Assembly: GCA_965262725.1 (NCBI GenBank)
Contig: OZ253555.1
Coordinates: forward strand, 672,001 to 736,000
Reading direction: 5' to 3'
Length of the DNA stretch: 64,000 nt
Source of the DNA: Dehalococcoidia bacterium
GTDB taxonomy: Bacteria; Chloroflexota; Dehalococcoidia; UBA2979
Part shown: positions 19,513-47,753 of the stretch, in pieces
Numbering within the stretch: position 1 is the stretch's first letter
Layout: the number at the start of each line of letters is the position of its first letter
The notes under the pieces: model-generated
Told to the model about the DNA's origin: nothing
The model's input: the letters and a program-made list of their open reading frames with translations, nothing else
The model's database searches: none
Made by a program: the position numbers and the translations under genes

Positions 19513-22179
19513 GTGAACAGACGCGATCTCTGGTGGCTCGGTCTCGCGGTCGTCGCCGGCCTGGCGGTGGGGATGGTCATCCGCCAGACGTACGAGCCGT
19601 TCGCGGCGGTGGCGTCCCATCTGGACGCCGCCGGGACACTGCCCCCGATCGTGGCTCAGGGTACGACGTCTTCGGCGATTCGGGCCGCGGAGCGGGCGCT
19701 GTGCGTGAGCGGCTCGGCGGTGGGCGCGGGCAACGAGGGTCTGCTCGACGACTGCGCGGTGCTGCTTCAGGCGAGGGACACGCTGCGCGGCACGGCGACG
19801 CTCAACTGGAGCGCCGACACCGCGATCGCGGACTGGACTGGCATCGCCCTATCCGGGACGCCGCAGCGCGTGACGGAACTGACGCCGACGTACGCCGGTC
19901 TCAACGGCAGCATCCCGCCCGTGTTGGGCAGTCTCCCCGGGCTGGAGGACCTGCAACTCTCCAACAATGCGCTGACGGGCTCGATTCCCGCGGAGCTGGG
20001 CTCGCTGAGTGAGCTGGACATCCTCTACCTCCACAACAACCAGCTTGAGGGCGCGATTCCCGCGGAGCTGGGGAACCTCGCGAAGCTGCGATTCCTGGGC
20101 CTGCGCAACAACCAGCTCACGGGCACGATCCCGGCCGCGTTCGCCAGCCTGTGGGAACTGCAGGACCTCTACCTCAACAACAACCAGCTCACGGGCGCGA
20201 TTCCGGCCCTGCTGGGCGACCTCGACCTGCGCATCCTCTACGTGGCGGGCAACAGCGGGCTCACGGGCTGCATCCCTGCGGCGCTGAGCAGCGTCACCTT
20301 CAGCGACCTCGCGACGCTGAGCCTGGAGGATTGTGAGGCGGAGCCCACGCACACGCTGACGACATCGAGGACCGGCATCGGCAGCATCTCTCCGGCGCCG
20401 GGCGCGCACAGCCACCGCAGCGGGGCGCTCGTGCGCGTGGAGGTGACTCCGGGAGACGGGTATCGCGTGGCGTCGTGGGGCGGCGACTGCAGCGGAAACG
20501 GCCGGGCGACGGAGTGCATCCTCACGCTGGACGCCGCCAGGACGGCGAGCGTGACCTTTGAGGCGGGAGAGCCCATCGCGACGTACACGCTGACGACGTC
20601 GGCGGGGTCGAACGGGAGCATCTCGCCCGCAGCGGGCACGCACATCTACGACGAAGACACGAGCGTGACGGTGACGGCGGCGCCGGGGGAAGGCTACCGC
20701 GTGGGGGCCTGGGGCGGCGACTGCAGCGGCGCGGCCCTGACCTGCGTGCTGACGATGGACGCGGACAAGACGGCGAGCGTGACCTTCGAGCGGACGGCGC
20801 ACACGCTCACGACCTCGGCGGGAGCGAACGGGAGCATCTCGCCCGCGGCGGGCTCGCACAGCTACGACGAGGACACGAGCGTCACCATCACGGCGACGCC
20901 GGATGAGGGCTACGGCGTCGACTCGTGGGGTGGCGACTGCAGCGGCACGGCCCTGACGTGCGTGCTGACGATGGACGCGGACAAGGCCGCGCGCGTCGTG
21001 TTCGCGCCGTCGGGTGCGGTCTGCACAACCGCCACGGACGCGACCTGCGTCCGGGCCGTCTACACCGGCGCGCCGGGCGACTACAGCTCCATCGCGGACA
21101 TCCCCGCGGACGCGCTCATCACGCCGGACGCGGCCGGCCGCTACCACGTGGAGCGGGGCGAGCAGGTGACGGTCATCACGGCCGCCACGGTGCCCACGGG
21201 CTACACGCGCTTCTACCTGCAGTGGCGGCCTGAGGGGACCCCCCCGCCGACCTCGTTCACGCGGCTGATCCCCCCCGTGGGGACGACGTACACGTTCACG
21301 CCGACGGAGGACGAGGCCGGGTCGACGCTGATCACGTTCGACCTGACGGCGGCGCGGCCGCGGCCGCTCTCAATCGGCGACAAGCCCGAGCTGGGGGACG
21401 TGGTGGCGACGACCGTCTTCCAGGTGGTCTCGTGTGGGTCGGGTGTCGCCGTGCCTGCTCCGACGACGAACGGGGAACTGGTCGGGGACTGCGAACAACT
21501 CTTGGCGCTCCGGGACACGCTGGAGGGCGCGGCAGCGCTGAACTGGAGCGCGAGGAGGGCCATGACGAGTTGGGCCGGCGTGACGATGTCGGGCACGCCC
21601 CGGCACGTGACGGAGCTGGAGCTGGCGAACAGCGGGTTGACGGGCGAGCTAACGGGCCTGCTGGGCACGCTCACGGCGCTGACGGAGCTGCGGCTCGATG
21701 GGAACGCCCTCACGGGCATGGTCCCGTCGAAGCTTGGCCAGTTGGCGGACCTGACGCATGTCTACCTGGCCGGGAACAACCTGACGGGCTGCGTGCCGAC
21801 GTCGCTGAGGGCGGTGGCGAACAACGACATCCCCCTGTTGAACTTGGCAGACTGCGGCGCGCCGGCCGACGTTTCCGACCGAACGCGAGGGGATCCGCTC
21901 CCGGTCGGCACCTACCAGTTCGACTTTTCCTCTCAGCACGGACCTCTTGTGTTCGACATCCCACCTGGTGCCAGCGTGGAGTTGGATTACTTGGTCGTCA
22001 GCGAGCCACAGGAAGGGACTGGCGATTCCACTGAGGGTCTCCTTCTGCAAGACGAAGCCACAAAATCTTGGGTCTGTCTCGATCTAGTACGGGCCATCGA
22101 ATGTAATCGATGGGTGAGCGGTCAGAGTGTAGACGTGACCTTTGACCGTATCATCGAATCGCTCTGGGTAGCTGAGTAG
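19513..22179 (+). CDS. Secreted/anchored LRR plus InlB B-repeat surface protein
   Basis: N-terminal TM; plant-type LRRs (LxLxNNxLTGxIPxxLG); three ~72-aa repeats (LTTSAG.NGSISP..WGGDCSG..C.LTMD..KTASVTF); second LRR block. Confidence 0.9.
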   Translation: MNRRDLWWLGLAVVAGLAVGMVIRQTYEPFAAVASHLDAAGTLPPIVAQGTTSSAIRAAERALCVSGSAVGAGNEGLLDDCAVLLQARDTLRGTATLNWSADTAIADWTGIALSGTPQRVTELTPTYAGLNGSIPPVLGSLPGLEDLQLSNNALTGSIPAELGSLSELDILYLHNNQLEGAIPAELGNLAKLRFLGLRNNQLTGTIPAAFASLWELQDLYLNNNQLTGAIPALLGDLDLRILYVAGNSGLTGCIPAALSSVTFSDLATLSLEDCEAEPTHTLTTSRTGIGSISPAPGAHSHRSGALVRVEVTPGDGYRVASWGGDCSGNGRATECILTLDAARTASVTFEAGEPIATYTLTTSAGSNGSISPAAGTHIYDEDTSVTVTAAPGEGYRVGAWGGDCSGAALTCVLTMDADKTASVTFERTAHTLTTSAGANGSISPAAGSHSYDEDTSVTITATPDEGYGVDSWGGDCSGTALTCVLTMDADKAARVVFAPSGAVCTTATDATCVRAVYTGAPGDYSSIADIPADALITPDAAGRYHVERGEQVTVITAATVPTGYTRFYLQWRPEGTPPPTSFTRLIPPVGTTYTFTPTEDEAGSTLITFDLTAARPRPLSIGDKPELGDVVATTVFQVVSCGSGVAVPAPTTNGELVGDCEQLLALRDTLEGAAALNWSARRAMTSWAGVTMSGTPRHVTELELANSGLTGELTGLLGTLTALTELRLDGNALTGMVPSKLGQLADLTHVYLAGNNLTGCVPTSLRAVANNDIPLLNLADCGAPADVSDRTRGDPLPVGTYQFDFSSQHGPLVFDIPPGASVELDYLVVSEPQEGTGDSTEGLLLQDEATKSWVCLDLVRAIECNRWVSGQSVDVTFDRIIESLWVAE

Positions 22180-22185
22180 CGCGCG

Positions 22186-22821
22186 GTGATGGTACTTCAG
22201 CATGCCCCCAAGCCGATCGTAAAGGTTATCGCCACACTGCTTCTTGCTTTGGCCTCCACCGGGTTGTCACTCTTCCTACCCGTCGTAGTTTCCCCGGAGC
22301 TCTCCCAGATGGCGTTTGCGGATATCGACACTACAGCCGCAAACGTGCTGTGGGCTAACGTAAGTCGAGAGACGATCGAGGGTGAGAGCGTTACTGTTTG
22401 CTCCGACACGCATCGGAACGCCGCGCAGGACGCAGTACAGATGTGGAACAGCGGCCTGCGGGACAAGGGCTTCGTGGAATTCGACGTGTTCACCTTCGCC
22501 GACACGTGCCCCAGTGTCGCCGCCGAGTCAACGGTCAGTGTCGATCACATACTCGTACGGGGTTTGCCCGAGACTGACCCGGACTTCCGATGTCCCACAT
22601 ACTCGGATGGCACTGGCGCTACTGGTTGTGCGCTGTTGGTGGCTCAGAGAGGTGTCCAGAACAATTTTGTTGGGATTCTCGAACTGCGATTGAATACTGA
22701 CAAGAGACCCGTCGCGCACGAGAATCCGTCGCATCCAGGCTACACCGTGGCGGGGTTTGAGGCCAATCGACGCACGGTAGCCCACGAGTTGGGTCATGCA
22801 CTCGGCATGGATCACCCTAGC
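22186..22821 (+). pseudogene. Secreted zinc metallopeptidase (matrixin-like), broken after the active site
   Basis: Signal peptide; HELGHALGMDH metzincin motif; out-of-frame junction to InlB repeats at 22822. Confidence 0.75.
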
Positions 22822-23333
22822 GCAGCGGCACGTCCCGGACGAGCAGCACGTGCACGCTCACGATGAGCGGTAACCGCAGCGCGAGCGTCAGCTTCATCCG
22901 GCAGTACAGGCTGACGACATCGGCGGGAGCGAACGGGAGCATCTCCCCTGCGACGGGCAGCCACGACAGCGGCGCGTCCGTGACTGTGAGGGCGACGCCG
23001 ACGAACGCCAACTACGCCATCAGTTCGTGGGGCGGGAACTGCAGCGGCACGTCCCGGACGAGCAGCACGTGCACGCTCACGATGAGCGGTAACCGCAGCG
23101 CGAGCGTCAGCTTCATCCGGCAGTACAGGCTGACGACATCGGCGGGAGCGAACGGGAGCATCTCCCCTGCGACGGGCAGCCACGACAGCGGCGCGTCCGT
23201 GACTGTGAGGGCGACGCCGACGAACGCCAACTACGCCATCAGTTCGTGGGGCGGGAACTGCAGCGGCACGTCCCGGACGAGCAGCACGTGCACGCTCACG
23301 ATGAGCGGTAACCGCAGCGCGAGCGTCAGCTTC
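22822..23333 (+). repeat. Exact 219-bp tandem repeat (~2.3 copies) encoding InlB B-repeats
   Basis: GCAGCGGCACGTCCCGGACG recurs at 22822, 23041 and 23260. Confidence 0.9.
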
Positions 23334-23645
23334 GCGAGGGTGCCGGTCACGTACACGCTGAGCACGTCGGTGAGGCCGTCGGGAATCGGGTCGATCAGCG
23401 TCAGCCCGGCGGGGCCGTACAGTCCGGGGACAAGCGTGAGCGCGTCGGCCACATCGAACTATCCGGACTATCGGTTCTCCCACTGGGTGGGTCCGGGATC
23501 GGGCGTCTCGCCGCGGACCATCACGATGAACGGGCACTATAGCCTGACGGCCGTCTTCGTGCCGATCACCGAGTGCACGCCGGGCGTGGACTGCCGCCGG
23601 AGCGACGACGGCGAGGGCGAGGAGGGGAGCACGCCCGCGCCGTAG
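22863..23645 (+). pseudogene. InlB B-repeat C-terminal part of the peptidase-linked surface protein
   Basis: Repeated LTTSAGANGSISP..WGGNCSG..CTLTMSGNRSASVSF; no signal peptide of its own. Confidence 0.7.
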
Positions 23646-30566: not shown

Positions 30567-31197
30567 ATGACCCATCGTTTCCCGGATAGTGACTGCACTC
30601 GCGCTGGCCACGCTGGCGCTGGCGGTACTCGGAGTCCGGACGACCGCCACACCCAACGAAGCGCGCATTCCTCTAGACGCCGTGGCCGCAGTCCACGTCA
30701 AGGAGCGCGACTCAAGCTGGATGTCCTACATCGCCGGGGCACCGCCACTCGTCAACCGCGACTTCATGAGCCGCTACGGCCCGCCGGTCACCCCGACGCC
30801 CGAGCCGCCAGCGGTCGACGGCTTCACCGTCAGCGGCGTAGGCCCGGAGACACACACCTTCGAGGCAAGCGGCATTCTCTCCTGCTCCGTCGACTATGAA
30901 CGCCCACGATCTGCTGCGGGCATCAGCGTTGATGTGCGGATAGCCGGCGATAGTGGCACGCCGTGGAGGACTGGCCCGAGCGGAACCACCAGCCCGGTGA
31001 GTCAGCTCAGCAGCACGCAACACAGAGAGATCTACTTCGGGGACCGCTACCCGGACCTTGAGGGCCGCTTCCTGAGTGGCGGGGACCGCTTCCTCCCGCC
31101 CTACTCAGTGGTGGTCCTGACTGCCGAGTACAGCGTGTTCGCGAGGGGGATCTACGTTTGGCGGCCCCTCCCATGGACTGTCGAGTGCCGACCGTGA
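30567..31197 (+). CDS. Secreted protein with SYI.GAP..VN motif (probable 1-bp frameshift near the start)
   Basis: AGGAGA RBS before ATG 30567; signal-peptide-like TALALATLALAVLG lies in the 30589 frame; WMSYIAGAPPLVNRDF. Confidence 0.6.
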
Positions 31198-31261
31198 GCC
31201 CGCTGGCAGCGTGCGCCGTACCGGATTCTGATACGCTGAGCCCGGGATAGGGAGGCGAAGC

Positions 31262-31357
31262 ATGGCGAGGCAACCGAAGGATCTACGGATACCCACCACG
31301 CCCGAGAAGCTCCTACAGGCGGTGCTGAAACCGCCGAAGAAGCCGCCCGCGCGGTAA
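31262..31357 (+). CDS. 31-aa basic peptide (IS1595 passenger)
   Basis: GGAGG RBS; MARQPKDLRIPTTPEKLLQAVLKPPKKPPAR. Confidence 0.5.
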   Translation: MARQPKDLRIPTTPEKLLQAVLKPPKKPPAR

Positions 31358-31372
31358 TCTCCCACTGGCTGT

Positions 31373-31449
31373 TGGAGGCCCCGGCGGGATTCGAACCCGC
31401 GTCTCGCGATTTTCAGTCGCGTGTCTTGCCCAGACTTGACTACGGGGCC
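31373..31449 (-). tRNA. tRNA with GAA (Phe) anticodon on a Cys-like scaffold
   Basis: GGCCCCG/CGGGGCC acceptor, GTC/GAC D stem, CGCGA-CTGAAAA-TCGCG anticodon arm, GCGGG-TTCGAAT-CCCGC T arm, U73 and encoded CCA. Confidence 0.9.
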
Positions 31450-31578
31450 TCTGATGCACGCAGCGGCGCGGTTGAATCCGACCGCTGCTCGGGCTACGAT
31501 GGGGGCCGCGAGGCACTCCATCGTGAACCGAAGAAGCGGCCCCGCCCGGCAAGGCGGGGTCGCTTCACGTCTGGGGCC

Positions 31579-31614
31579 ATTATAGGGGAAGGCACAGAAC
31601 GCGCGTTCTGTGCC
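31579..31614 (-). promoter_or_regulatory. TATAAT -10 box with adjacent perfect 24-bp palindrome containing AGAAC-N4-GTTCT (LexA-like operator)
   Basis: ATTATA at 31579-31584 (TATAAT on minus); GGCACAGAACGCGCGTTCTGTGCC at 31591-31614. Confidence 0.6.
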
Positions 31615-31655
31615 GTGTGCTGCGGGTGGCGGGATCTGCTGCGGGCGATACAGAC

Positions 31656-32240
31656 CTAGCGGATCAGTTCCCCGTACTGGAGGCGCTTCCCGACCAGCCC
31701 GCGCACGACGGCGCGCATCTGGTCGATGGTGTCCATCGGGCGGGCGTTGTGCCGCCCGGCGAACTCCGTCACGTAGCGGTCCAGGTGCTTCACGCTCATG
31801 TGGTGGAGCGTGCCCTGATACCCGCGCTTGAACATCGACCACAGCGACTCGATGCCGTTGGTGTGGGTGTTCCCGATCACGTATGTCCCGACCGAGTGCT
31901 GGACCGCGTCGTGCTTGTACTCGCCCGCCAGCGGGACGTAGGCCGCGTGGCCGTCGGAGTACACCTGAGCGCCGCGGGCGGCGTGCTCGCGCACGAAGTC
32001 GCGCAGGGTGTCGCCGTCCGTCGAGGCGATCGCTCGGGCGCTGACGCGGTTGGTCGCGCGGTCCTTGACGCCGACGACGGCGGCCTTGTCGGAGAGCACG
32101 CCGCGTGGGTGGATGCGATCGCGCTCGGAGGCGTGCTTGTTCTTCGCCAGCCCGCCCACGTAGGTCTCGTCGACCTCGACCGGGCCGTCGAACGGATCGC
32201 CGCCGTTCTCCTCCCACGCTTGCCGGAGCCGGTGTGCGAA
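31656..32240 (-). pseudogene. IS1595 family transposase lacking the N-terminal zinc ribbon/HTH
   Basis: VEVDETYVGG, VYSDG, HTNGIESLWSMFKR, Y.TEF.GRHN. Confidence 0.9.
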
Positions 32241-32956
32241 GTCGGTGCAGCCAGCGCCTACGCGGTTGACGCCCAAACAGAGGCGAGGGTTGCAGCATGC
32301 CGGCTGCAGGACGATGCCCTCAAGCTAGTTCATCGTTACCTTGTCCGGCGTGATCCTCAGGATGACGCGTTTGTCGGCGTCGAGCTGCGTGTGGCCCCAG
32401 GGGAGAACCCCTTGATTCGCTAGGCTTCCCTACGAACTCGAAATGCGAAGGGAAGCCCGATGAAGATCGTCATCGAGCAAGAGGGGTGGGGCGAGACGGG
32501 GCAATACCACCTCAACGCGGCCGCTACCACCAATGGCCCCTTGTTCAGACCTTTCTTAGCGGCCGGCGGCGCCATTCTTGGTACTGGCCGGCGACGGCTC
32601 TGGCGTCGGCGCCTTCGAGGAGGCTAAGACCGAGGCTTGAAGGTGTGGCACTTGTCCGCAGTTGACGGCGACTTCCGCTACAGGAGGCGGGAACGCGATG
32701 GCCGCCTGTTGATGCCCGATAACGCAGAGCGGCTAGTGGGGGGCGCGCTGTTCCAGCGGCTTTGGCGCAAGGCGTTGTCGCCCCGGCAGTTCGTTTGAGC
32801 ATCCCACTGGAGTCCTCGAACAGCCAGCATGTGACAAGATGCTGGCGTAGCTCGCGTCACAAGCGGGTTCCACCAAGGGGCGGACGTGACCCGGCGGAAC
32901 GCAAGCGTGAAACCCACGGTGTGCTACACTTGTGGACACAATGAAGGAGCCAGTAG

Positions 32957-33690: not shown

Positions 33691-33949
33691 ACCCAATCTT
33701 GAGCACTTCCGTGGGGACCAACTCTGGCGCGTGCCTGCCATCGTCGACGGGCAGTAGCTACGGCCTCAGGTTCAACTTGCCGAGGAGCGCCTCAACCGTC
33801 ATGGCGTTCTTTGGTATGAACTTTCTCGCACCGTCGGCTGGATCCTCACGTTTGATGAAGTAACGATCGAAGGCCCGGACATCACTCGTCTTGCCTGTCC
33901 TGTATGACTCGTACAACCATCGGATTAGAGCGCGAAGCCGCCGCCAGTG

Positions 33950-34939
33950 CGCCGCGCCGTTGCGCCTGGGGCAGCTCGCCCTGCTCGCGGATGACGGCGT
34001 CCGTGAGGTTGAGGCCGGAGGCACCCACGAGCGCGGCGACGTCCTTCCCGGCCGCGCCCTGCGCGGTGGAGACGAGCAGCACGCCCCGTCGAGGATCGTG
34101 CGCCTGAGGTCGATAGTGGAGCGGGGCTGGCCGAGGATGGCGCGCGCCCGCTTCGAGGAGGCGTAGTAGGAGAGCCGCGTCTGGACGGGGGCGAGGGCGT
34201 CGGCGCGGTACTCGCGGCGCCGGCCCTTGAAGTCGCGCTCCCACCAGTCCAGCAGGAACTCGTCGCTCACCCGCTTCAGCACCAGCGTGCGGAAGCGGTC
34301 GTCGGAGAGCAGGCGCAGCCCGTCGAGGATCGTGCACTGCTCCTCGGCGGCGGTGGCGGGATGGGCGTTGTGCTCGTGCCGGGTCTTCACGACCTGCTCG
34401 AGGATCGACTGCATGCGCGGCCCCCACTGCTCCCAGATCCCCTTCGCCACGCGCACGACCGAGTCGGCGGTGCGGTCGCGGTCGCTGAAGACGCGCGTGT
34501 CGAGCAGGTTGATGCCGGGGTAGCCGCGCTCGCCCGCGAGGTCGAGGAGGCGGACCTGCCCCGCCAGCGACTCGGGGACCTGCTGGAGGATGTCGGCGAC
34601 GAGGTCGGCGTGGGGGTCGACGACGACGATCGCGTCGCCGTCGCGGCCCGCCGCCTTCTCGCGCAGCCTGTGCGCGACGAGGTGCTGCATGAGCGTGGAC
34701 TTGCCCATGCGCGTGCGCGCGACGTAGAGGTGGTGGCGGCGCAGCAGGTCGTCGGGGAAGCGGATCTCCCGCGGCGCGCCCGCCGTCGTCTGGCCGACGA
34801 GCGCCCCGCCGCTTACGTCCCTCGCCTGGGGGACGTGCACCCGCGCCCCGGACCGCGCCACGAGCGGCGTCTCGTCCTTCGCGCCGGGCGGGTGCCAGAG
34901 CGCCGCGGCCTCGCGCACGCCGAGCACGCGCAGGCCCAC
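33950..34939 (-). pseudogene. Central fragment of a second VirD4-like paralog
   Basis: HHLYVARTRMGKST, VVDPHADL, WGPRM, ARAILGQPRSTID; truncated at both ends and frameshifted. Confidence 0.85.
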
Positions 34940-34942
34940 CGC

Positions 34943-35090
34943 CTACGGGGACGAGGTCGACGACCTGATGCTGGCGCTCGCCGGGAAGATCGTCGCCGGC
35001 GGGGAGGACGCCGCCTCGGTCGAGTCGGTCTTCGCCCGGGCCCCGGGCCGGCAGCGGTCTCTGTTCTCCTGGGCGGAGTTCATGTGGGCA
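34943..35090 (+). pseudogene. Second C-terminal remnant of the same large protein family
   Basis: YGDEVDDLMLALAGKIV..VESVFA..QRSLFSWAEFM. Confidence 0.45.
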
Positions 35091-35166
35091 TGTGGGCGTC
35101 GCCCCATGTGTCCGCAGCATGCGGAAACGCCGCCCGGACCCGCGTTGAGCCGATTCTGGCGTGTTC

Positions 35167-35246
35167 GGAACGAATCCGGAACAAATCCGGAACAAATCCG
35201 GAACGTTTGGAACTCTCGTGGAACGAATCCGGAACTTTCTGTGAAC
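35167..35246 (+). promoter_or_regulatory. Eight phased GGAAC direct repeats upstream of the conjugation operon
   Basis: GGAAC at 35167, 35178, 35189, 35200, 35209, 35220, 35231 and TGAAC at 35242 (spacing 11,11,11,9,11,11,11). Confidence 0.8.
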
Positions 35247-35306
35247 GCCTGATCGCACCCTAGCCCTGCATCGCCGCACGCCGCCAATCGAGGCGAGCGC
35301 TCGCCG

Positions 35307-36494
35307 ATGCGGAAGGGGCTGGCCGTGCGGGGTCCGCTGCTCGCCGTCGCCGGAGCGCTCGTCTGCTGGCTACTGCTGGCCGTGCCCGCCCACGCGGAGC
35401 AGGCGGCGGATCCGCTCGCGGCCCTCACCCGGGCCGGCGCACCTCTCGTCGCCGCGGCGGCGCCCCCATCCGCCGGCCCCACACCAGAGGCGAGGCCGAT
35501 GGCGGCCGCCGCGACGGCCCCGGTCGCAGCACAGCCCGGCACCGCCCCCGCGATCGGCATTCCCGGGCTCCCGAGCCCCTCCGACCTGCTGAGCGGGCTC
35601 GACCCGCGCGAGTGGGCGGCCTCGATCCTCGACGGCGTCGTGAGCGCGCTCGGGCGGGAGCTGCTCGGGGCGATGCGCAGCTTCATCGACTGGGCGCTCG
35701 GCTTCGGGGGCTCCTCGCTCAACTTCGTCACGCGCACCCCCGCAGCGGGCTCCTACGAGAGCCCGACCGTGCGCTCCCTCTGGGACTTCTCGCGCGCCAT
35801 CGCCAACGCCGGCCTCGCCGTGGTGGTGATGTGGGGCGGCTTCAACGTCATCGTCCGGCGGCACATCGGCAGCCCCTACCACGGGGCGATGGAACTGCTT
35901 CCCCGCGTCATCCTCGCCGCCCTCGCCGTGAACCTCACGCTCGAGTTCGCGGGCCTCCTGATCGAGGTCAACAACGCCTTCGCCTCAGCCGTCGGCCAGG
36001 TCGGCCTGCCCGGCTACGAGCAGGCGAACGTCGCGCAGGAGGGGATCGCTCTCGTCTTCGTGGCGATCGCGTACGCCGTGATGGCGCTCCTGCTGGTCTT
36101 CCAGATGCTGATGCGGCTCGCACTCCTGGACGTATTGATCGTGCTGTCGCCGCTGATGGTGCTCTGCTGGGTGCTGCCCCAGACGCAGGGCTGGACGCGC
36201 TGGTGGGCGCACCTCTTCCCGATCGTGGTCTTCCAGCAGGCGGTCCAGCTCGTCGTGCTGCGCCTCGGCGCGGCGCTGATGGTCGAGCTGGTGCCCGGCG
36301 GCGCCGCGGACGCGCTGCTGACCCTGCTCCTCGGCATCGCCATCGCCGCCCTGACGCTCCGGGTGCCCTCGCTCCTCCACGGCCAGGTCCAGCAATCGGG
36401 CACCGGGGCGGCCGTCGCGCTCGTCGTGGCCGGCCGCGTCGCCGCCGGCGTCGCCGGGCGCGGTAGCGCCGCCGCCGGCGCGGTGGGGAGGTAG
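35307..36494 (+). CDS. TrbL/VirB6-like polytopic membrane protein
   Basis: Multiple TMs; MRLALLDVLIVLSPL..W.LPQT.GW..WW..VFQQ pattern; operon context. Confidence 0.75.
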   Translation: MRKGLAVRGPLLAVAGALVCWLLLAVPAHAEQAADPLAALTRAGAPLVAAAAPPSAGPTPEARPMAAAATAPVAAQPGTAPAIGIPGLPSPSDLLSGLDPREWAASILDGVVSALGRELLGAMRSFIDWALGFGGSSLNFVTRTPAAGSYESPTVRSLWDFSRAIANAGLAVVVMWGGFNVIVRRHIGSPYHGAMELLPRVILAALAVNLTLEFAGLLIEVNNAFASAVGQVGLPGYEQANVAQEGIALVFVAIAYAVMALLLVFQMLMRLALLDVLIVLSPLMVLCWVLPQTQGWTRWWAHLFPIVVFQQAVQLVVLRLGAALMVELVPGGAADALLTLLLGIAIAALTLRVPSLLHGQVQQSGTGAAVALVVAGRVAAGVAGRGSAAAGAVGR

Positions 36495-36497
36495 CCC

Positions 36498-36911
36498 GTG
36501 CTCCAGGCCGCGCTCATCGCCAGTTCGCTGCTCGGCGACCTCCCGCGCGAGGCGCTCCGCATCGCCGGCGCGCTCCTGCTGCTCGTCCTCGCCTCCGTGC
36601 TCGTGGTGGTGATCGCCGTGGCGGCGCTGGCGGCGACGCTGCTCGCGGCACTTCCCGGCGTCGGCGGTCCCGAACCGCCTCCGCCTCCGCCCGAACACGC
36701 CACCGCCATCTCCAGAGACGGCGCTGCGCACGGCGTGCCCGCGGAGCTGCCGGTAGTGGCGATCACCCCGGTGGGGCGCGGCTTCGGCGCCCGCACCAAG
36801 GCGCCAGCGGCCGCCGTGGCGCCGGCGCCCGCCCGCGAGAGCTATGCCGCCGCCGAGCTCATGACGGCACCGCCGCCCGTGCCGGCCGCGTTTGCCGGGG
36901 CAGCGTCGTGA
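36498..36911 (+). CDS. Membrane-anchored hypothetical protein (possibly a degenerate VirB1-like hydrolase)
   Basis: Long N-terminal TM, short low-complexity tail; position in the tra operon. Confidence 0.45.
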   Translation: MLQAALIASSLLGDLPREALRIAGALLLLVLASVLVVVIAVAALAATLLAALPGVGGPEPPPPPPEHATAISRDGAAHGVPAELPVVAITPVGRGFGARTKAPAAAVAPAPARESYAAAELMTAPPPVPAAFAGAAS

Positions 36912-37465
36912 CCGGGCGCGGACCGGGCTACGCGCTGCTCGCGCTCGCCGCGCTGCTCTTGGCGGTCGCCGTCGCCTCCGCCTGGAGCGGGGCCTCGCGC
37001 CTCGCCGGGCGCGGTGAGGACGGCGCCGCGCGCAGGGCGGCCGATGCCGCCTCCGTGGAGGCCGCGGCGTCCGCGTTCGTGTCCGCCTACGGCGGCTTCG
37101 ACTACCGCGACGCAGACAGCTATATGGCGCGCCTCGCCGCGCTCACCTCAGGCGAACTCCGCGCGGCGCTCGCGGGAGCGGCGGTCGATCCGGCCGCCAT
37201 CGCCGGGGGCCGCCGGAGCCGCGCGGCCGTCCAGTCGGTCTCGGTCGCCGCGCTCACCGCCGCTGTCGCGGAGGCGACGGTCCGCTCGCTGCACGAGCGG
37301 AGCTGGCTGGACCCGGCGTCCGGACGCGCCGCCCGGGAAGAGGTCACCCAGCACGTCCGCCTGCGGCTCGTCCGCGAGGGCGGCCGCTGGCTGGTGACGG
37401 AGGTGCTTGTGATGAGCGAGGAGCCGGCCGGCGCACGGGGCGCCGGCCGAGAAGGGAGCCAGTGA
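36908..37465 (+). CDS. VirB8/NTF2-like bitopic protein
   Basis: N-terminal TM; A..FV.AY..FDY; LRLVREGGRWLV. Confidence 0.6.
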   Translation: MTGRGPGYALLALAALLLAVAVASAWSGASRLAGRGEDGAARRAADAASVEAAASAFVSAYGGFDYRDADSYMARLAALTSGELRAALAGAAVDPAAIAGGRRSRAAVQSVSVAALTAAVAEATVRSLHERSWLDPASGRAAREEVTQHVRLRLVREGGRWLVTEVLVMSEEPAGARGAGREGSQ

Positions 37466-37695
37466 TGGAAGAGATCAACGTGCTGTTCGGGAACCTGCTC
37501 GACATCGGCATCGGTGTGGCGGCGGCGGTCTCGGCGTTCTTCGTGATGTGGGGGGCATTCCTCTACATGTCGGCGTCCGGGTCGCCCCGCCAGATGGAGG
37601 CGGGCAAGACGGCGATCCTCAACGCGCTCGCGGGGTTCGCGATCGTGCTGCTCGCGCGCGCGATCGCCGGCATCGTGCAGGGGGCGATGGCGTGA
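37465..37695 (+). CDS. TrbC/VirB2-like pilin
   Basis: Two TMs, G..YM.A.G.P..ME.GK..I.NA..G motif. Confidence 0.8.
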   Translation: MEEINVLFGNLLDIGIGVAAAVSAFFVMWGAFLYMSASGSPRQMEAGKTAILNALAGFAIVLLARAIAGIVQGAMA

Positions 37696-38090
37696 TGGGG
37701 CGCCACGAGATCCCGACCCACCTCGGCGTCGCCGACAAGGCCGTCCTCGGCCTGACGATGCGCCAGCTGCTCTCGGCCGCCGCCGGCCTCTCGCTGGCCT
37801 ACGGCGCCGCGGGCGACCTGCCGCTGCCGCTGCCCGTCCGCCTCTGTGCGGCCGCGCTGGTGCTGGCCGCGGTGCTGCCGCTGGTCTTCTGGCGGCCCGC
37901 CGGACGCCCGCTCGAGGAGTGGGTATTCGTGCTGCTGCGCTACCGGGCCGTGCCCCGCACCGCCGTCTGGAGGCCGCGCGAGCGCTCCGTGCCTCCGCGC
38001 GCGGCTCGCGAGGTGGTGCTGCGCCCGCTCGCGGCGCCGCCCGTCCACCCGGTGACGAGGAGGGGAGACGTGCATGCGACCGCGTCCTGA
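37695..38090 (+). CDS. PrgI/VirB3-like protein
   Basis: HEIPTHL.V.DK..LGLTMRQL, two TMs, GRPLEEW. Confidence 0.8.
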   Translation: MGRHEIPTHLGVADKAVLGLTMRQLLSAAAGLSLAYGAAGDLPLPLPVRLCAAALVLAAVLPLVFWRPAGRPLEEWVFVLLRYRAVPRTAVWRPRERSVPPRAAREVVLRPLAAPPVHPVTRRGDVHATAS

Positions 38091-38289
38091 CCGGAGACGG
38101 CGGTGGCGGCCGTTCGGGAAGAGCGCTCACCCGGCCGAGCAGCGGGCCGAGCAGCGGGCCCATCAGCGGGCCCGACGGGAAGCACGCAGGCAATCGCACC
38201 GGATCAGGAGACGCACGTGGCGAGCACGCATGAGGCGCTACCGCTGATGGAACGCGGAGCCCGGGTGGTGGCGAGGAAGGGAGTGGCAC

Positions 38290-38994
38290 ATGTGGTCACG
38301 CGGTAGCAGGAGGCGGCGCCTCGCGAGCGTGCAGGAAATCCTGCCGCTGGAGGAGATATCGGGCGACATCGTGCGCCTGCGCGGCGGCGACTACCGCTGC
38401 GTGCTCGAGGCCCAGGGCATCCACTTCGCGCTGAAGTCGGAGCCGGAGCAGGAGGCGATCCTCGCCGGGTACCGGCGCTTCCTGAACGGACTCACCTACC
38501 CGCTGCAGGTGCTGGTGCGCCTGGTCCCGGCCGACGTCGAGGGCTACCTCGCCGGTCTCGGGGGCGCCCGCGCGGGCACGGAGACGCTGCGGCGGCTCGC
38601 GCTCGACCACGAGGCGTTCGTGCGGCGCATCGCCCGCGAGCGGACGCTGCTCGACCGCCGCTTCTACGTGGTCGTCCCGGCGGACGTGGACGCAGCACCC
38701 GGGCGGGCCGCGCCGGGCTGGCCGTGGCGCCGCGGCCTGCAAGCGCAGGGGCAGAGCGACCTCGCCCGGGCGCGGCGCACGCTCTCCTTGCGCTCAGGCG
38801 AGGTGGCGCAAGGCCTCGGCTCATTCGGCGTGAGCACGCGGCGGCTGGGCGGCGAGGAACTGGCGGCGCTCTGGCGCGCCGCGCTCGGCGGTGTCTCAGG
38901 CGGCACCGCCAGTCGTGAGGCTCTGGTCGCCACACCGGTCGTCACATCGCCCGCCGCCTTCTCCGGGCTCCGGCAGGCGGTCTCCCGTGCGTAG
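38290..38994 (+). CDS. VirB4-associated conjugation protein
   Basis: I.FALKSE.EQEAI..Y..FLN.L.YPLQ; RRFYVVVP. Confidence 0.7.
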   Translation: MWSRGSRRRRLASVQEILPLEEISGDIVRLRGGDYRCVLEAQGIHFALKSEPEQEAILAGYRRFLNGLTYPLQVLVRLVPADVEGYLAGLGGARAGTETLRRLALDHEAFVRRIARERTLLDRRFYVVVPADVDAAPGRAAPGWPWRRGLQAQGQSDLARARRTLSLRSGEVAQGLGSFGVSTRRLGGEELAALWRAALGGVSGGTASREALVATPVVTSPAAFSGLRQAVSRA

Positions 38995-40810
38995 CCCCGC
39001 GGCACTCCTGCGGCGCCGGGATCGCGGCGCGGGCTCGTCCGGTGCGCATCGCTTCGCAGCGGGCGAGCGCTCCACCGCCGACCTGATCGCGCCCACGGCG
39101 ATCGAGGAGGCGCGAGACTGCCTCGCCATCGACGGGCGGCTCACGCGCGTGCTGGCGCTCACCGGCTACCCGCGCCACGTCGCCCCGAACTGGCTCGGGC
39201 GGCTCATCGACCAGGGCGAGCCGCTCGACCTCAGCCTGCACCTCGAGCCGCTGGACTCGGGGGACGCGGTGCGCGGCCTGACCCACCGCCTGGTGGAGCT
39301 CCAGTCATCGCGCCTGCTCGACGCCAGGGGCGGGCGCATCGCCTCCGCCGAGCGCGAGGTCGCCTACGAGGATGCCGAGCGGCTGCGCGACGCGCTGGAG
39401 CGCGGCGACGAGCGCGTCTTCTCGGGAAGCCTCTACGTCCGGGTGCACGGCCGCTCGGTTCAGGAGCTCGACCGGGCCGCGGCGCGCGTCCAGGGGACGC
39501 TCGCCGGGATGATGGCGGGAGTCCGGCCGGCTCTCTACGAGATGATGCCGGGCCTGCTCTCGTGCCTCCCGGCCGGGCAGGACCACCTGGGGCGCCGCCG
39601 CAACCTCGACACGTCGAGCGTGGCGACGATGATCCCCTTCACCTCGAGCGCTCTCTCCGCCGGCCGCGGGCTGCTCTACGGCGAGAGCGTCCACAACAGC
39701 TCGCTGGTGGTCTTCGACCCCTTCGGACCCGACCAGGAGAACGCCAACAAGGTCGTCTTCGCGAAGAGCGGGGCCGGTAAGTCCTACGCCTGCAAGGTGG
39801 AGGCGCTGCGGGCGCTGCTGCTCGGCGTCGAGTACTACGTGATCGACCCCGAGGACGAGTACGGCCGCATCTGCGAGGCGGTCGGCGGGCAGATGGTCCG
39901 CCTCTCCGGCGGCTCGCCCGTCCGCATCAACCCCTTCGACCTGCCACCGTGGGCGCCGGAGCCGGACCGGGCGGATCCCGACGCGCGCGATCCGCTCGCC
40001 GAGCGCGTCCTGGCGCTTCAGGGACTGCTCGCGCTGATGCTGGCGGGGCCCGGTCAATCGCTCGGGCAGCGCGAGCAGGGCGTGCTCGACCGGGCGCTCT
40101 ACGAGAGCTACCGGCGGGCCGGCATCACCGCCGACCCGGCGACGCACGACCGCCCTGCGCCGGTGCTGCGCGACCTGGTCCGGGTGCTGGCGGGCTCAGG
40201 CGATGAGCACGGGCTCGCCGGGCGCCTGGAGCGCTACGTCTCGGGCAGCCTCGGCCGCGTCTTCTCGGAGCGCACGACGGCCTCACTCGACCGCCCCTTC
40301 GTCGTCTTCAACGTGGAGGGCCTCGAGGAGGAGCTGCGCCCGCTCGCCACCTACCTCATCGCGGATCACATCTGGGGGCGGGTGACGCGCGACCCGAGAC
40401 CCCGCGTGCTCCTGATCGACGAGGCGTGGTCCCTGATGCGCTACCCCGAGGGGGCGCGCTTCCTGGCGCAGCTCGCGCGCCGGGCGCGCAAGCGCTGGCT
40501 CGGCCTCACGACGGTCACGCAGGACGTGGGGGACTTCCTGGCCTCGCCGGAGGGTCACACCGTGCTCGCCAACAGCTCGGTGCAGCTCCTGATGCGGCAG
40601 GACAGCTCCACGGCCGGGCTCGTCGCGGAGACCTTCGGGCTCTCGGCCGCGGAGCGGGAGTTCCTGCTCGCCTGCCGCAGGGGCGAGGGCCTCTTCCTGG
40701 CCCGCGGCAACCACATCGCGCTGCGCGTCGAGGCGAGCCCGCTCGAGCACGCGCTGGCGACGACAGACCCCGCGGAACGCGCTGCCGACAGGACGGAGGT
40801 GCAGCCATGA
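38987..40810 (+). CDS. virB4: VirB4-like conjugative ATPase
   Basis: AKSGAGKS Walker A, VIDPEDEY, INPFD, LLIDEAW, RRARK, TVTQDV.DF. Confidence 0.9.
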   Translation: MRSPAALLRRRDRGAGSSGAHRFAAGERSTADLIAPTAIEEARDCLAIDGRLTRVLALTGYPRHVAPNWLGRLIDQGEPLDLSLHLEPLDSGDAVRGLTHRLVELQSSRLLDARGGRIASAEREVAYEDAERLRDALERGDERVFSGSLYVRVHGRSVQELDRAAARVQGTLAGMMAGVRPALYEMMPGLLSCLPAGQDHLGRRRNLDTSSVATMIPFTSSALSAGRGLLYGESVHNSSLVVFDPFGPDQENANKVVFAKSGAGKSYACKVEALRALLLGVEYYVIDPEDEYGRICEAVGGQMVRLSGGSPVRINPFDLPPWAPEPDRADPDARDPLAERVLALQGLLALMLAGPGQSLGQREQGVLDRALYESYRRAGITADPATHDRPAPVLRDLVRVLAGSGDEHGLAGRLERYVSGSLGRVFSERTTASLDRPFVVFNVEGLEEELRPLATYLIADHIWGRVTRDPRPRVLLIDEAWSLMRYPEGARFLAQLARRARKRWLGLTTVTQDVGDFLASPEGHTVLANSSVQLLMRQDSSTAGLVAETFGLSAAEREFLLACRRGEGLFLARGNHIALRVEASPLEHALATTDPAERAADRTEVQP

Positions 40811-41871
40811 GCCACATCGACATCGATCAGCTGAAGCGCCGCAACCCGCTCGCCGACATCGTCCGGCGCCACGGGGTCGAGCTGCGCGGGCAGGGGAGGC
40901 GACTGACGGGGCGCTGCCCGTTCCACGAGGACCGGACCCCGAGCCTCTGCGTCTATCCCGAGACGGAGTCCTTCCACTGCTTCGGCTGCGGCGCCTCGGG
41001 CGACGTGATCGACTTCATACGCCGCACAGAGGGCCTGAGCTTCCGCGAGGCCGTCGTGCGGCTCGGAGGCGGAGCCGTGGGCGCCGCCGCCGGCAGGGCA
41101 CCCGCGCCCCCGGGGCAGGCCCGTCCGTCGCACGAGAGCGAGCAGGTCCCGGTGCTCTCGCTCGACGACCGGCTGATCCTCACGGCGGCCTGCGAGCTCT
41201 ACCACGAGACGCTGCTTGAGACGCCCGCGGCGCTGCGCTACCTGGATGAGCGGGGAGTGCAGCCCTGGGTCGCGAAGCGCTGCCGGCTCGGCACGAGCGA
41301 CGGCCGGAGGCTCGTGCCCTACCTGAAGCGGCGCCGGCTCAGCCTGAAGCGCGCCGGGGAGCTCGGCCTCCTCTTCGCTTCCGGCGACGAGGCGATGGCC
41401 GGCCGCCTCGTGATCCCGGAGCTGCGAGGCGCGCACTGCGGCTGGATGGTCGGGCGCGCCCCGGACGGCGCCGGAGGGCCGAAGTACCGCGGGCTCTCGC
41501 TCCCGAAGCCGTTGCTCGGTTACGAGCGCGGCAGGCGGCGCCTCTTCCTCACCGAGGGGCCGTTCGACTGGCTGACGCTCACGGGATGGGGGCTGCCGGC
41601 GTGCGCGCTGCTCGGGACGCAGCCCGGCCGGGGCGTGCTGCGGCTGCTCGAACGCGCTCGCTCGGTCGTGCTCGTGATGGACTCAGACGAGGCAGGCAGA
41701 GGCGCCGCGCAGCGGCTCTCCGCCGAGCTCGAAGGGCGCGCGCGGGTGCTCGAGCTGCCCGCGGGCGTCAAGGACGTGAGCGAGCTCGGCGCGCGTCCCG
41801 GCGGCCGCGACACCTTCTTCCGGCTGCTGGGCGCGGAGAGGAGGGACGCGGATGTCGCGATCACGCACTGA
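40807..41871 (+). CDS. CHC2 zinc finger/TOPRIM primase
   Basis: CPFHEDRTPS, FHCFGCGASGDV, TEGPFD, MDSDEAG, KDVSE. Confidence 0.9.
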   Translation: MSHIDIDQLKRRNPLADIVRRHGVELRGQGRRLTGRCPFHEDRTPSLCVYPETESFHCFGCGASGDVIDFIRRTEGLSFREAVVRLGGGAVGAAAGRAPAPPGQARPSHESEQVPVLSLDDRLILTAACELYHETLLETPAALRYLDERGVQPWVAKRCRLGTSDGRRLVPYLKRRRLSLKRAGELGLLFASGDEAMAGRLVIPELRGAHCGWMVGRAPDGAGGPKYRGLSLPKPLLGYERGRRRLFLTEGPFDWLTLTGWGLPACALLGTQPGRGVLRLLERARSVVLVMDSDEAGRGAAQRLSAELEGRARVLELPAGVKDVSELGARPGGRDTFFRLLGAERRDADVAITH

Positions 41872-46325: not shown

Positions 46326-46504
46326 ACGACGACTCACTGCTGCTGACAGTCCCCGAGACCGCGAAGCTGCTTCGGATCTCGCGCAACCTCGCCTATGAAC
46401 TGGTGGCGCGGGGAGAGCTGCCGGCCGTTCGGTTGGGAAGGGTGATCCGGATACCCCGGGACGAGCTTAGAGCCCGGATCAAGGCGAAGGCCAGCGACGA
46501 CTGA
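46322..46504 (+). CDS. xis: Excisionase-like HTH_17 protein
   Basis: LLTVPETAKLLRISRNLAYELVARGELPAVRLGRVIRIP. Confidence 0.9.
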   Translation: MNDDSLLLTVPETAKLLRISRNLAYELVARGELPAVRLGRVIRIPRDELRARIKAKASDD

Positions 46505-46610
46505 ACAAGGCCGGGTAACAGCACTAACGTTCGGATAGAATGGATGTTCTGACCGGGGGACTCGTGGTTGGAGCGGACACGACCGGCCGGTCGCGCCGAG
46601 GAAGCGGGAG

Positions 46611-47753
46611 ATGATGACTGGTCACATAGAGCGCCGCGGGAAGGGCAGTTGGCGGATCACCGTGGAACTGGCACCTGATCCCGTCATTCACCGGCGCCGC
46701 AAGCGCACGTTCACGATTCGCGGGACGAAGAAGGAGGCGGGGCGTGCGCTGACCGAGGCGCTGAGGCTGCGGGACCAGGGGATCGACATTGCGCCGAGCC
46801 GCATCACCGTCGCGGAGTACCTCGAACGCTGGCTGAGCGACTACGCCGAGCCGAACGTCGCACCATCGACGCTCCAGCGCTACCAGCAGATATGCAGGCG
46901 GCTCGCTGAACACCTCGGCGCGCTGAGACTACAGGCCCTGCGGCCGGCACACATCCAGACGACGTACTCGCGGCTCCGGGAGCACGCCCTGGCTCCCCGC
47001 ACCATCCTCCACCACCATCGCGTCCTGAAGGAGGCCCTGCGCCACGCGGTCGGCTGGCAGCTTCTTGAACGTAGTCCGGCGGATGCCGTGTCGGCGCCTC
47101 GTCCCGAGCGGACGGAGATGCGGGCGCTCGACGCGGATGAGGTCGAGCGGCTGGTGAATGCCTGCGAAGACGACGACCTGCGCCGTCTGGTCTTTGTTGC
47201 GGTGTCGACGGGTCTCCGGCTCGGTGAGCTGCTCGGTCTGCGGTGGGCAGACCTCGATCTGGAGGCGGGAACGGCAGCCGTTCGGCGGACTTCCCAGTAC
47301 CTGGGACCGGACGGGGTGAAGCTGCGGACACCCAAGACGGCGCGGAGCCGGCGCACGATCTCGCTGTCGCCGTCGACGGTTGTCGTGCTCCGTGAGCACA
47401 GGGTTGCGCAGAACGAGCGACGGCTGCGCATGGGACCTTCATACGGGGACCATGGGGTCGTCTTTGCTGCGGACGATGGCCGGCTAGTGGCGCCCTACTC
47501 CGCGTCCGCCGAGTTCCGGAAGGTCGTGCGGAGGCTCGGACTCACCGGCTTCCGCTTCCACGATCTGCGACACACGTCGGCAACGCTGGCGCTGCAGGCC
47601 GGCGTGCCCGCGAAGGTCGTCTCAGAACGCCTCGGGCATGCGAGCGTTGCGTTCACGCTCGATACGTACGCGCACGTCCTTCCCGATCAGCAGCGCCAGG
47701 CTGCGGATCTGATGGACTCGCTGCTGCCCGTACCTCGCAGAAGCGCCCGTTAG
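46611..47753 (+). CDS. int: Tyrosine integrase (ICE/prophage type)
   Basis: TGLRLGELLGLRW, PKT, FHDLRH, SERLGH, TLDTYAHV; complete catalytic set. Confidence 0.95.
   Translation: MMTGHIERRGKGSWRITVELAPDPVIHRRRKRTFTIRGTKKEAGRALTEALRLRDQGIDIAPSRITVAEYLERWLSDYAEPNVAPSTLQRYQQICRRLAEHLGALRLQALRPAHIQTTYSRLREHALAPRTILHHHRVLKEALRHAVGWQLLERSPADAVSAPRPERTEMRALDADEVERLVNACEDDDLRRLVFVAVSTGLRLGELLGLRWADLDLEAGTAAVRRTSQYLGPDGVKLRTPKTARSRRTISLSPSTVVVLREHRVAQNERRLRMGPSYGDHGVVFAADDGRLVAPYSASAEFRKVVRRLGLTGFRFHDLRHTSATLALQAGVPAKVVSERLGHASVAFTLDTYAHVLPDQQRQAADLMDSLLPVPRRSAR

Follow-up and report, generated by a model that had tools for sequence, protein, structure and literature searches.

A chimeric tRNA gene that joins a cysteine-type body to a phenylalanine-type anticodon arm in mobile DNA of a Dehalococcoidia bacterium

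To which amino acid does a transfer RNA (tRNA) belong when its body and its anticodon point to two different ones? This question is raised by a 77-nucleotide (nt) tRNA gene at positions 31373-31449 of a 64,000-nt stretch of DNA from Dehalococcoidia bacterium (the window), which corresponds to positions 672001-736000 of the single contig (C1; 3,674,403 bases, 70.6% G+C) that makes up the host genome. An initial reading of the letters of the window (the original prediction) had described the gene as a tRNA with a Cys-type body and a Phe (GAA) anticodon, and as a possible missense or recoding tRNA. Judged by its sequence, the gene is a chimera in which the acceptor stem, D arm, variable loop, T arm and discriminator U73 are of the Cys type and the anticodon arm is the complete Phe anticodon arm of the clade. 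It is a third, extra gene and not the sole Phe or Cys tRNA of the cell, because a canonical tRNA-Phe(GAA) (C1:2294795-2294870; A73, a D stem of 4 base pairs (bp) and a 5-nt variable loop) and a canonical tRNA-Cys(GCA) (C1:2663160-2663233; U73) sit elsewhere in the genome.

A search of the whole window with ARAGORN resulted in a single tRNA call, 31373-31449 on the (-) strand, labelled tRNA-Phe with the anticodon gaa at position 36. The call matched Rfam RF00005 with 69.1 bits (gathering score, 29; E 8.8e-15), and its minimum-energy fold is a cloverleaf of -34.4 kcal/mol (z -2.62), with 2 of 200 shuffled sequences folding equally well. The 7-bp acceptor stem is fully paired and begins with G1-G2-C3, and the discriminator U73 (window 31376) precedes a CCA end that is encoded in the gene (31373-31375). 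The D stem consists of 3 bp (G10:C25, U11:A24 and C12:G23) closed by an A13/A22 mismatch, and the D loop of 10 nt includes G18 and G19; U8, A9 and A26 are present. The anticodon arm has a perfect 5-bp stem and the loop CUGAAAA, with GAA at window 31412-31414, and is followed by a variable loop of 4 nt (AGAC, ending in C48) and by a T arm with a perfect 5-bp stem and the loop UUCGAAU. All 20 stem pairs are Watson-Crick, and the tertiary partners U8/A14, G15/C48, G18-G19 with U55-C56, and U54/A58 are legible. The geometry is therefore the normal 7/5 acceptor/T arrangement with a short (4-nt) variable loop, and each structural feature listed in the original prediction (U73, G1-G2-C3, the 3-bp D stem, the 4-nt variable loop, CUGAAAA and the perfect stems) can be read in the sequence.

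To compare the parts of the gene with their potential sources, tRNA-Phe and tRNA-Cys genes were extracted with ARAGORN from up to 40 relatives. The 17-nt anticodon arm is identical to that of 12 of 29 relatives' tRNA-Phe genes, which makes it the commonest Phe arm of the clade, and it differs from the arm of the host's own tRNA-Phe by a single base pair, 28:42. When the arm alone was matched within the host genome, tRNA-Phe reached 13 of 17 and the runner-up tRNA reached 9, and the Phe-type anticodon stem was present in none of the 119 distinct non-Phe tRNA sequences from all fetched loci. The remainder of the molecule belongs elsewhere. With the anticodon arm removed, local alignment within the genome gave tRNA-Cys as the best match (37/57) and tRNA-Asp as the next (26), and the sole full-length match of the intact gene in a BLAST search of its own genome was tRNA-Cys, at 77% identity. 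The T stem is identical to that of the host's tRNA-Cys, and the D loop is 3 nt longer. The host's own tRNAs were further compared in a set of 50 ARAGORN calls, which had been preselected for a CCA ending and so give no gauge of how general an encoded CCA is. In this set, the D-arm motif TAG.CAAG (positions 8-15) with the return strand AAG.CA occurs only in the chimeric tRNA and in tRNA-Cys, four calls start with GGC and eight carry U73.

The same division holds across the clade. All 25 aligned clade tRNA-Cys sequences have U73, G1G2C3 and the A13/A22 D arm, with a variable loop mostly of 4 nt, and all 21 aligned distinct tRNA-Phe sequences of the relatives have A73, a 4-bp D stem and a 5-nt variable loop; the contrast with bacterial tRNA-Phe that the original prediction had drawn thus holds for the host's own tRNA-Phe and for these 21. 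Its description of the anticodon loop as one base from that of tRNA-Cys also stands, but the point change that this implies does not, as the anticodon stem is identical to the Phe stem and departs from the Cys stem in three of its base pairs. Relative to the host's own tRNA-Cys, the stems differ at 5:68, 11:24, 27:43, 29:41 and 31:39, and all five pairs are still Watson-Crick. Because every stem pair that changed has stayed paired, the gene fits descent from working tRNAs better than decay.

Covariance models were built from the 25 distinct clade tRNA-Cys and the 21 distinct clade tRNA-Phe sequences, both with a low effective sequence number (1.25 and 1.2). The chimeric tRNA scored 76.2 bits with the Cys model and 57.4 bits with the Phe model. 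With the Phe model, the host's own tRNA-Phe scored 109 bits, its tRNA-Cys 56.1 bits and Gly tRNAs 55.9-59.4 bits; with the Cys model, the host's tRNA-Phe scored 60.5 bits, and across the two models the Gly tRNAs ranged from about 36 to 59 bits. Because 57.4 bits is the level of Gly tRNAs and of the host's tRNA-Cys, the Phe model treats the chimeric tRNA as non-cognate despite its perfect Phe arm. A best score with the Phe model, the outcome that the original prediction had named as speaking against it, was thus not obtained, and the identity mismatch is real and stronger than had been claimed.

The GAA anticodon itself was checked in Logan contigs of four sequencing runs. These span window positions 31000-31851 with no differences and no gaps, at depths of 12.5-34.8, and show GAA rather than GCA, which excludes a slip of the consensus at the anticodon; all four runs belong to a single sample of a single study, which probably also gave rise to the assembly, and they are not independent of it. 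Separately from the reads, the Phe-type anticodon stem that surrounds the loop argues that it is a Phe loop.

Excerpts of PMC9976931 list U73, G2:C71, C3:G70, tertiary interactions and G34, C35 and A36 as bacterial Cys determinants; in the same excerpts, cysteinyl-tRNA synthetase (CysRS) requires U73 plus all of G34, C35 and A36, and minihelices gain Cys identity from U73 alone. The bacterial Phe determinants given there are A73, the 10:25 pair, U20, U45, U59, A26:G44 and G34, A35 and A36, with G34, A35, A36 and A73 as the conserved identity set, and of these the chimeric tRNA keeps the anticodon, A26 and G10:C25.

We tentatively favor the possibility, in which our confidence falls somewhat short of even, that the gene encodes a functional, horizontally carried tRNA that reads UUY codons and is charged mainly by phenylalanyl-tRNA synthetase (PheRS). 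Since the anticodon GAA sits in a native Phe arm, the tRNA would read UUC and UUU on the ribosome, and its A36-A37-A38 is the setting in which an i6A37-type modification is usually found. As the anticodon triplet forms the conserved core of Phe identity, PheRS would be the enzyme most likely to charge the tRNA, though less efficiently than canonical tRNA-Phe because A73 and the Phe-type core are absent. For CysRS the lack of C35 is costlier than the lack of A73 is for PheRS, and some leak to CysRS might occur; the genome has a single PheRS alpha gene and a single full-length CysRS (482 amino acids). The product would be a body-swapped tRNA-Phe, or an alloacceptor-remolded tRNA-Cys, that travels with a cargo site associated with IS1595. 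Possible expression signals are a TATAAT hexamer 130 nt upstream of the gene (2 occurrences in the window on both strands, 0.43 expected) and a TTGACT-16-TAGCAT arrangement at the homologous module of a sister species; a two-hexamer scan around the tRNA gave no full sigma-70-type promoter site, and a terminator scan was likewise empty. We infer expression, charging and any benefit of the tRNA, and sequence alone cannot name the amino acid that it carries. Evasion of anticodon nucleases, which had also been proposed, is not favored: element-borne tRNAs that evade nucleases differ in the anticodon loop or stem, and the arm found here is the ordinary clade tRNA-Phe arm, one base pair off the host's own.

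Several observations weigh against a functional tRNA charged by PheRS. Relative to the determinants in PMC9976931, as excerpted, U73 stands in place of A73, A44, G45 and A59 stand in place of G44, U45 and U59, and U20 is missing; with most Phe determinants beyond the anticodon lacking, charging by PheRS may be poor. By the same excerpts, the tRNA carries five of the six CysRS sequence determinants (U73, G2:C71, C3:G70, G34 and A36), with C35 replaced by A35. Its standing as a Cys-type molecule is not beyond challenge by score either. In a scan of 150 genomes of the class with the Cys model, true tRNA-Cys scored 77.7-105.3 bits and ordinary tRNA-Gly(UCC), which shares U73 and a similar T arm with the chimeric tRNA, scored up to 72.7 bits, the highest value of an ordinary non-Cys tRNA, so that 76.2 bits lies just under the cognate range and only 3.5 bits over this background; G2:C71, C3:G70 and the A13/A22 D arm say more about the type of the tRNA than its total score does. 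A truncated transposase also adjoins the gene, in a region crowded with remnants of insertion sequences (ISs) and other elements, and the tRNAs at the homologous site of a sister species look partly degenerate and less intact than the chimeric tRNA.

The rarity of the gene points in the same direction. No homologue was found by BLAST in 40 relatives, whose best full-length matches were their tRNA-Cys genes (73-77%), and none was found in 400 genomes of the class with two candidates scored per genome, where the sole match was an ordinary tRNA-Cys (81%). The D-arm pattern gave nothing in 400 genomes of the phylum with up to two mismatches allowed, and nothing in viral contigs with three positions set to N and no mismatches. 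Scans of 185,579 species genomes, of metagenomes and of viral contigs for the body plus the loop turned up no relative. The pattern of a Cys body with CUGAAAA did match three loci in the species genomes and two metagenome records (and no viral contig), which were considered as a possible family of tRNAs with a Cys body and GAA. This family was rejected: all five matches keep the Cys-type anticodon stem and hence are not relatives, two of them lie in a Gly-Cys gene cluster of the usual kind, the loop of one is 6 nt long, and all have the look of ordinary tRNA-Cys with a single-base variation or error. Two of the public sequences are a near-identical pair of tRNA-Cys genes from Terriglobia (L022 5872-5946 and L025 2-75), one in a metagenome-assembled genome and one in a metagenome contig, in which the same anticodon base is changed from C to A in one and lost in the other, which leaves a 6-nt loop; these changes may reflect a sequencing problem beside the run of A or real variation.

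The alternative that survives best is that the gene is an inert by-product, formed by gene conversion or illegitimate recombination of element-borne attachment-site sequences of the tRNA-Cys and tRNA-Phe types, which would be unexpressed or uncharged, short-lived and as yet undecayed. We regard this as unlikely. That the gene is an orphan in every search made would agree with it, as would the mosaic of mobile DNA in which it lies. Upstream of the tRNA gene, at a distance of 206 nt and on the same strand, is an IS1595/ISXO2-type transposase gene whose open frame covers 222 amino acids compared with mostly about 310-345 in its homologues, which align to it only from its residue 12-13 onward. The genome is also full of tRNA remnants: copies of tRNA 3' halves, from the anticodon loop to CCA (tRNA-Gly and tRNA-Arg), lie near C1 positions 160342, 327327, 459719, 3414745, 1651671 and 84237, and are what elements that integrate into tRNA genes would be expected to leave behind. 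In the relatives, partial tRNA-Cys repeats by intact genes (G016, G001 and G039) and a partial tRNA-Phe repeat (G004), which begin at nt 23-31, indicate that elements of the clade carry and recombine such segments.

The homologous site in the sister species also bears on this alternative. The flank at 31262-31357 is homologous to sequences in two genomes of the same genus (G001:C177, 80%; G002:C104, 84%), and the end of the transposase likewise recurs at both modules. In the G001 module, the promoter-like TTGACT-16-TAGCAT is followed by two irregular tRNAs (L097 1863-1934 and 1953-2028). The first has U73, G1G2C3, the anticodon GGC and C33, is without CCA, and scores 53.8 bits with Rfam; the second has A73, the anticodon GUC (Asp) and two mismatched pairs in the anticodon stem, scores 62.8 bits, and has a body closest to the five tRNA-Arg genes of the genome that carries the chimeric tRNA (top match, 42/59). 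At the G002 module there is no tRNA, and an unrelated open reading frame (ORF) fills the place. Because one homologous module holds two irregular tRNAs and the other none, the site is one that carries variable cargo, including identity-mismatched tRNAs. The irregularity of the tRNAs at the first module and the lack of a tRNA at the second would suit an inert by-product. The chimeric tRNA itself suits it less: the cloverleaf and tertiary positions are perfect, CCA is encoded, all five stem pairs that differ from tRNA-Cys are still paired, a -10-like hexamer lies upstream, and the arm swap is clean, with junctions exactly at the stem ends, unlike the product of a single crossover in the anticodon loop.

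It is also unlikely, and to a slightly greater degree, that the gene encodes a dual-identity mistranslating tRNA, of which CysRS would charge a substantial share via U73, G2:C71 and C3:G70, such that UUY would sometimes be read as Cys and the tRNA would serve the element as a stress or diversity device. The five Cys determinants, the identity that U73 alone confers on minihelices (in the excerpts of PMC9976931) and the scarcity of Phe determinants outside the anticodon speak for it. Natural hybrid-identity tRNAs also offer precedents as far as the excerpted sources describe them, namely tRNAProX (PMC10404621), and the allo-tRNAs and selC* tRNA-Cys with CysRS*, which lacks an anticodon-binding domain (PMC5389517, PMC11415595). 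In the G001 module, the Arg-bodied tRNA with an Asp anticodon provides another mismatch, and the host genome itself encodes a CysRS paralogue without an anticodon-binding domain. On the other side, C35, a major determinant of CysRS in the excerpts of PMC9976931, is replaced by A35, the complete Phe anticodon arm suggests tuning to the Phe system, and no synthetase gene was found among the ORFs of the window that were scanned with Pfam. Mistranslation of UUY codons, which the original prediction had raised, is possible on the strength of five of the six CysRS determinants (PMC9976931, as excerpted), without C35 and with no dedicated synthetase linked to the gene.

The short CysRS paralogue (C1:766695-767831; 379-409 amino acids) lies 63 kilobases (kb) from the tRNA and was considered as its dedicated synthetase. 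It was rejected in this role as a core gene of the family, distant from the tRNA and probably a ligase of a thiol pathway. It occurs in all 24 genomes of the family that were searched, at 52-86% identity, and those genomes are without the chimeric tRNA. Its scores fall under the NCBIfam cut-offs for both cysS (338; cut-off, 340) and MshC (322.6; cut-off, 485), its best solved relative is Escherichia coli CysRS (283.5 bits, compared with 259.4 for MshC), and 15 of 30 look-alike clusters in the Atlas are labelled as mycothiol-type (MshC-like) ligases. The genome also contains an MshA-like gene (389 bits; cut-off, 462.5) that adjoins an LmbE-like gene (C1:588985-590527), and no MshB or MshD equivalog above cut-off was found in it. 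Because the paralogue is present in family genomes without the tRNA, carries MshC-like labels and has the MshA-like/LmbE-like pair in its genome, it is more likely to be a thiol-pathway ligase than the partner of the chimeric tRNA. A paralogous synthetase that both adjoins the tRNA and shares its distribution, as expected of a dedicated enzyme, was not found among the scanned ORFs of the window.

In a bolder form of this proposal, the gene would be a deliberate Phe-to-Cys or ambiguous Phe/Cys decoder on mobile DNA, charged by CysRS or by the short paralogue via U73, G2:C71 and C3:G70, and placed at a genus-specific cargo site for hybrid tRNAs downstream of an IS1595-type transposase. Its native Phe anticodon arm would then bring Cys efficiently to UUY codons, and the collecting role of the site would follow from the Arg-bodied tRNA with an Asp anticodon at the G001 module. 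We hold this form to be doubtful.

Still less probable is a tRNA-like element without a role in translation, such as a recombination target or decoy for integrases that act on tRNA genes, or a decoy for toxins directed at tRNAs. The usual core site of tyrosine integrases has the shape of a 5-bp inverted repeat around 7 nt, which the anticodon stem-loop shares. Two tyrosine integrases are encoded in the window, at 5315-6490 and 46611-47753, and the partial repeats in the relatives point to attachment sites in the anticodon region of their tRNA-Phe and tRNA-Cys genes. No direct repeat of any part of the chimeric tRNA was found elsewhere in the genome beyond generic T-arm matches to tRNA remnants, and a mere recombination site would need no complete, perfectly paired tRNA with CCA. 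The neighboring conjugative module encodes a HerA-like ATPase, TrbL/VirB6, a type IV secretion system pilin, PrgI, a VirB4-like ATPase, a primase, a coupling protein, a Replic_Relax protein and the second of the two integrases. This module lies on the 5' side of the tRNA, upstream of it, rather than downstream of the 3' end. A sister genome has three related copies of the module (G003; C1:1049824-1060346, C2:186021-194615 and C1:911534-916582; 77-87% identical), the HerA-like ATPase gene of the module (window 33938-34929) recurs at four more places in that genome, and no tRNA was found in six 20-kb stretches around the three copies. Given the wrong orientation, the lack of repeats and the lack of a tRNA by these copies, the tRNA was rejected as an attachment site of the conjugative element.

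The weakest alternative, a sequencing or assembly error in a tRNA-Cys whose true anticodon is GCA, might draw on the five public matches, which resemble one-base errors or mutations beside a run of A, with the Terriglobia pair altered at the same base by substitution in one copy and deletion in the other, and is hardly credible in view of the four concordant runs (albeit of one sample), the Phe stem around the anticodon and the canonical tRNA-Cys elsewhere in the genome.

The coordinates of the features are given in Table 1. As a regular passenger of IS1595 elements, the tRNA was rejected: none of 29 related transposase loci in 400 genomes of the class has the downstream arrangement seen here, and the seven with a tRNA call within 1.5 kb have it upstream of the transposase in every case.

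Table 1. Positions in the window of the chimeric tRNA gene, its parts and its neighbors
Feature	Position	Strand	Evidence or remark
Chimeric tRNA gene, 77 nt with encoded CCA, anticodon GAA	31373-31449	-	ARAGORN, Rfam RF00005, cloverleaf fold, run contigs
Cys-type 5' part: acceptor 5' strand G1G2C3, U8 A9, D arm with A13/A22, 10-nt D loop	31423-31449	-	
Anticodon arm, nt 27-43, 5-bp stem and CUGAAAA	31405-31421	-	same as commonest clade tRNA-Phe arm
Cys-type 3' part: 4-nt variable loop, T arm, acceptor 3' strand, U73, CCA	31373-31404	-	
TATAAT, -10-like hexamer, 130 nt upstream of tRNA 5' end	31579-31584	-	possible promoter
IS1595/ISXO2-type DDE transposase remnant, 206 amino acids, N-terminally short	31656-32276	-	Pfam PF12762, 122.4 bits
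31-amino acid ORF convergent with the tRNA, kept at homologous modules of two sister species	31262-31357	+	no Pfam match
tRNA-bearing segment, unique in the genome	30341-31655	.	own-genome BLAST; GC 0.61-0.68, genome 0.706
Conjugative-element module, neighbor, not part of the tRNA	33758-47753	.	Pfam matches

The window further contains IS110, IS4-type and two IS21 elements, a second primase, prepilin peptidases, and surface proteins with leucine-rich repeats and InlB B-repeats (19513-23645). A protein with a SocA/Panacea antitoxin domain (55652-56086, + strand) is flanked by the two IS21 elements. Outside the window, a second tRNA-Asn(GUU) (C1:2130970-2131046) has a body that best matches tRNA-Gly(UCC) (0.60, compared with 0.32 to the other tRNA-Asn) and lies ~2 kb from a copy of an IS1595-type transposase (C1:2128433-2129008); it may be another remolded tRNA, in a body-similarity screen of the host's tRNAs that is noisy and gave many best matches across isotypes. 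Three identical 82-nt ARAGORN calls of tRNA-Ser(tga) without CCA (C1:342535-342616, 405878-405959 and 736840-736921, the last 840 bases beyond the end of the window) are probably the tRNA-like part of a repeated element. A selenocysteine tRNA gene (C1:747136-747232) lies 44 kb from the chimeric tRNA, and no link between the two was found.

Among known systems, the gene belongs with alloacceptor remolding and with hybrid-identity tRNAs. With remolding, or anticodon shift, as described in the excerpts of PMC4783518 and PMC3923123, it shares an extra copy that is nearer to another acceptor family than to the tRNAs of its anticodon. In these excerpts, classical remolding is a point change of the anticodon in a duplicated gene, mostly in mitochondria and eukaryotes, whereas here the whole 17-nt arm is of the new type, the discriminator is not switched, the setting is bacterial mobile DNA and both ancestral genes are kept. 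The tRNAProX/ProRSx pair of Streptomyces and Kitasatospora, going by excerpts of PMC10404621 and PMC11415595, is likewise bacterial and joins the body of one identity to the anticodon of another; the gene described here differs in that it has no adjoining synthetase, a Cys-type body and a Phe anticodon, and is known from sequence alone. The excerpts of PMC5389517 describe selC* tRNA-Cys with CysRS* and the allo-tRNAs, with which the chimeric tRNA shares a U73 Cys identity combined with a non-Cys anticodon in mobile or accessory DNA, and the host's CysRS-like gene without an anticodon domain resembles CysRS*. As excerpted there, these tRNAs have 8/4 or 9/3 geometry, UCA or GCA anticodons and CysRS* in the same operon; the chimeric tRNA has 7/5 geometry, and the short CysRS paralogue is a family core gene 63 kb off. 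Nor is the chimeric tRNA an allo-tRNA in the sense of those excerpts (PMC5389517), with 8/4 or 9/3 geometry and a long variable arm. In a limited literature search, which covered no supplements, we found no described case that joins Cys and Phe identities or swaps a whole arm. Phages and mobile elements carry tRNAs that back up those of the host, normally with the identity elements of their own isotype; the chimeric tRNA is like them an extra tRNA with a host anticodon in mobile DNA, and its arm is the ordinary Phe arm of the clade.

Few natural tRNAs combine a body and an anticodon that belong to different amino acids, and the characterized ones, tRNAProX, the allo-tRNAs and selC* tRNA-Cys, have altered views on the fixity of the genetic code. 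The gene described here is unusual in being an arm-for-arm chimera of two tRNAs that are both kept in canonical form in the same genome, and in riding on mobile DNA, with other mismatched tRNAs at the corresponding site of a sister species. It is also unusual in that CysRS and PheRS both read the anticodon, which makes its identity ambiguous. If it is inert, the gene documents the recombination of element-borne tRNA fragments into new tRNA genes. If it is charged with Cys, it would be a new natural mistranslation device, and a deliberate decoder, if that reading were true, would stand for a class of natural mistranslating tRNAs that is new, synthetase-independent and spread by mobile elements. 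Were it charged with Phe, the gene would provide a gauge of how far PheRS tolerates a foreign tRNA body in nature.

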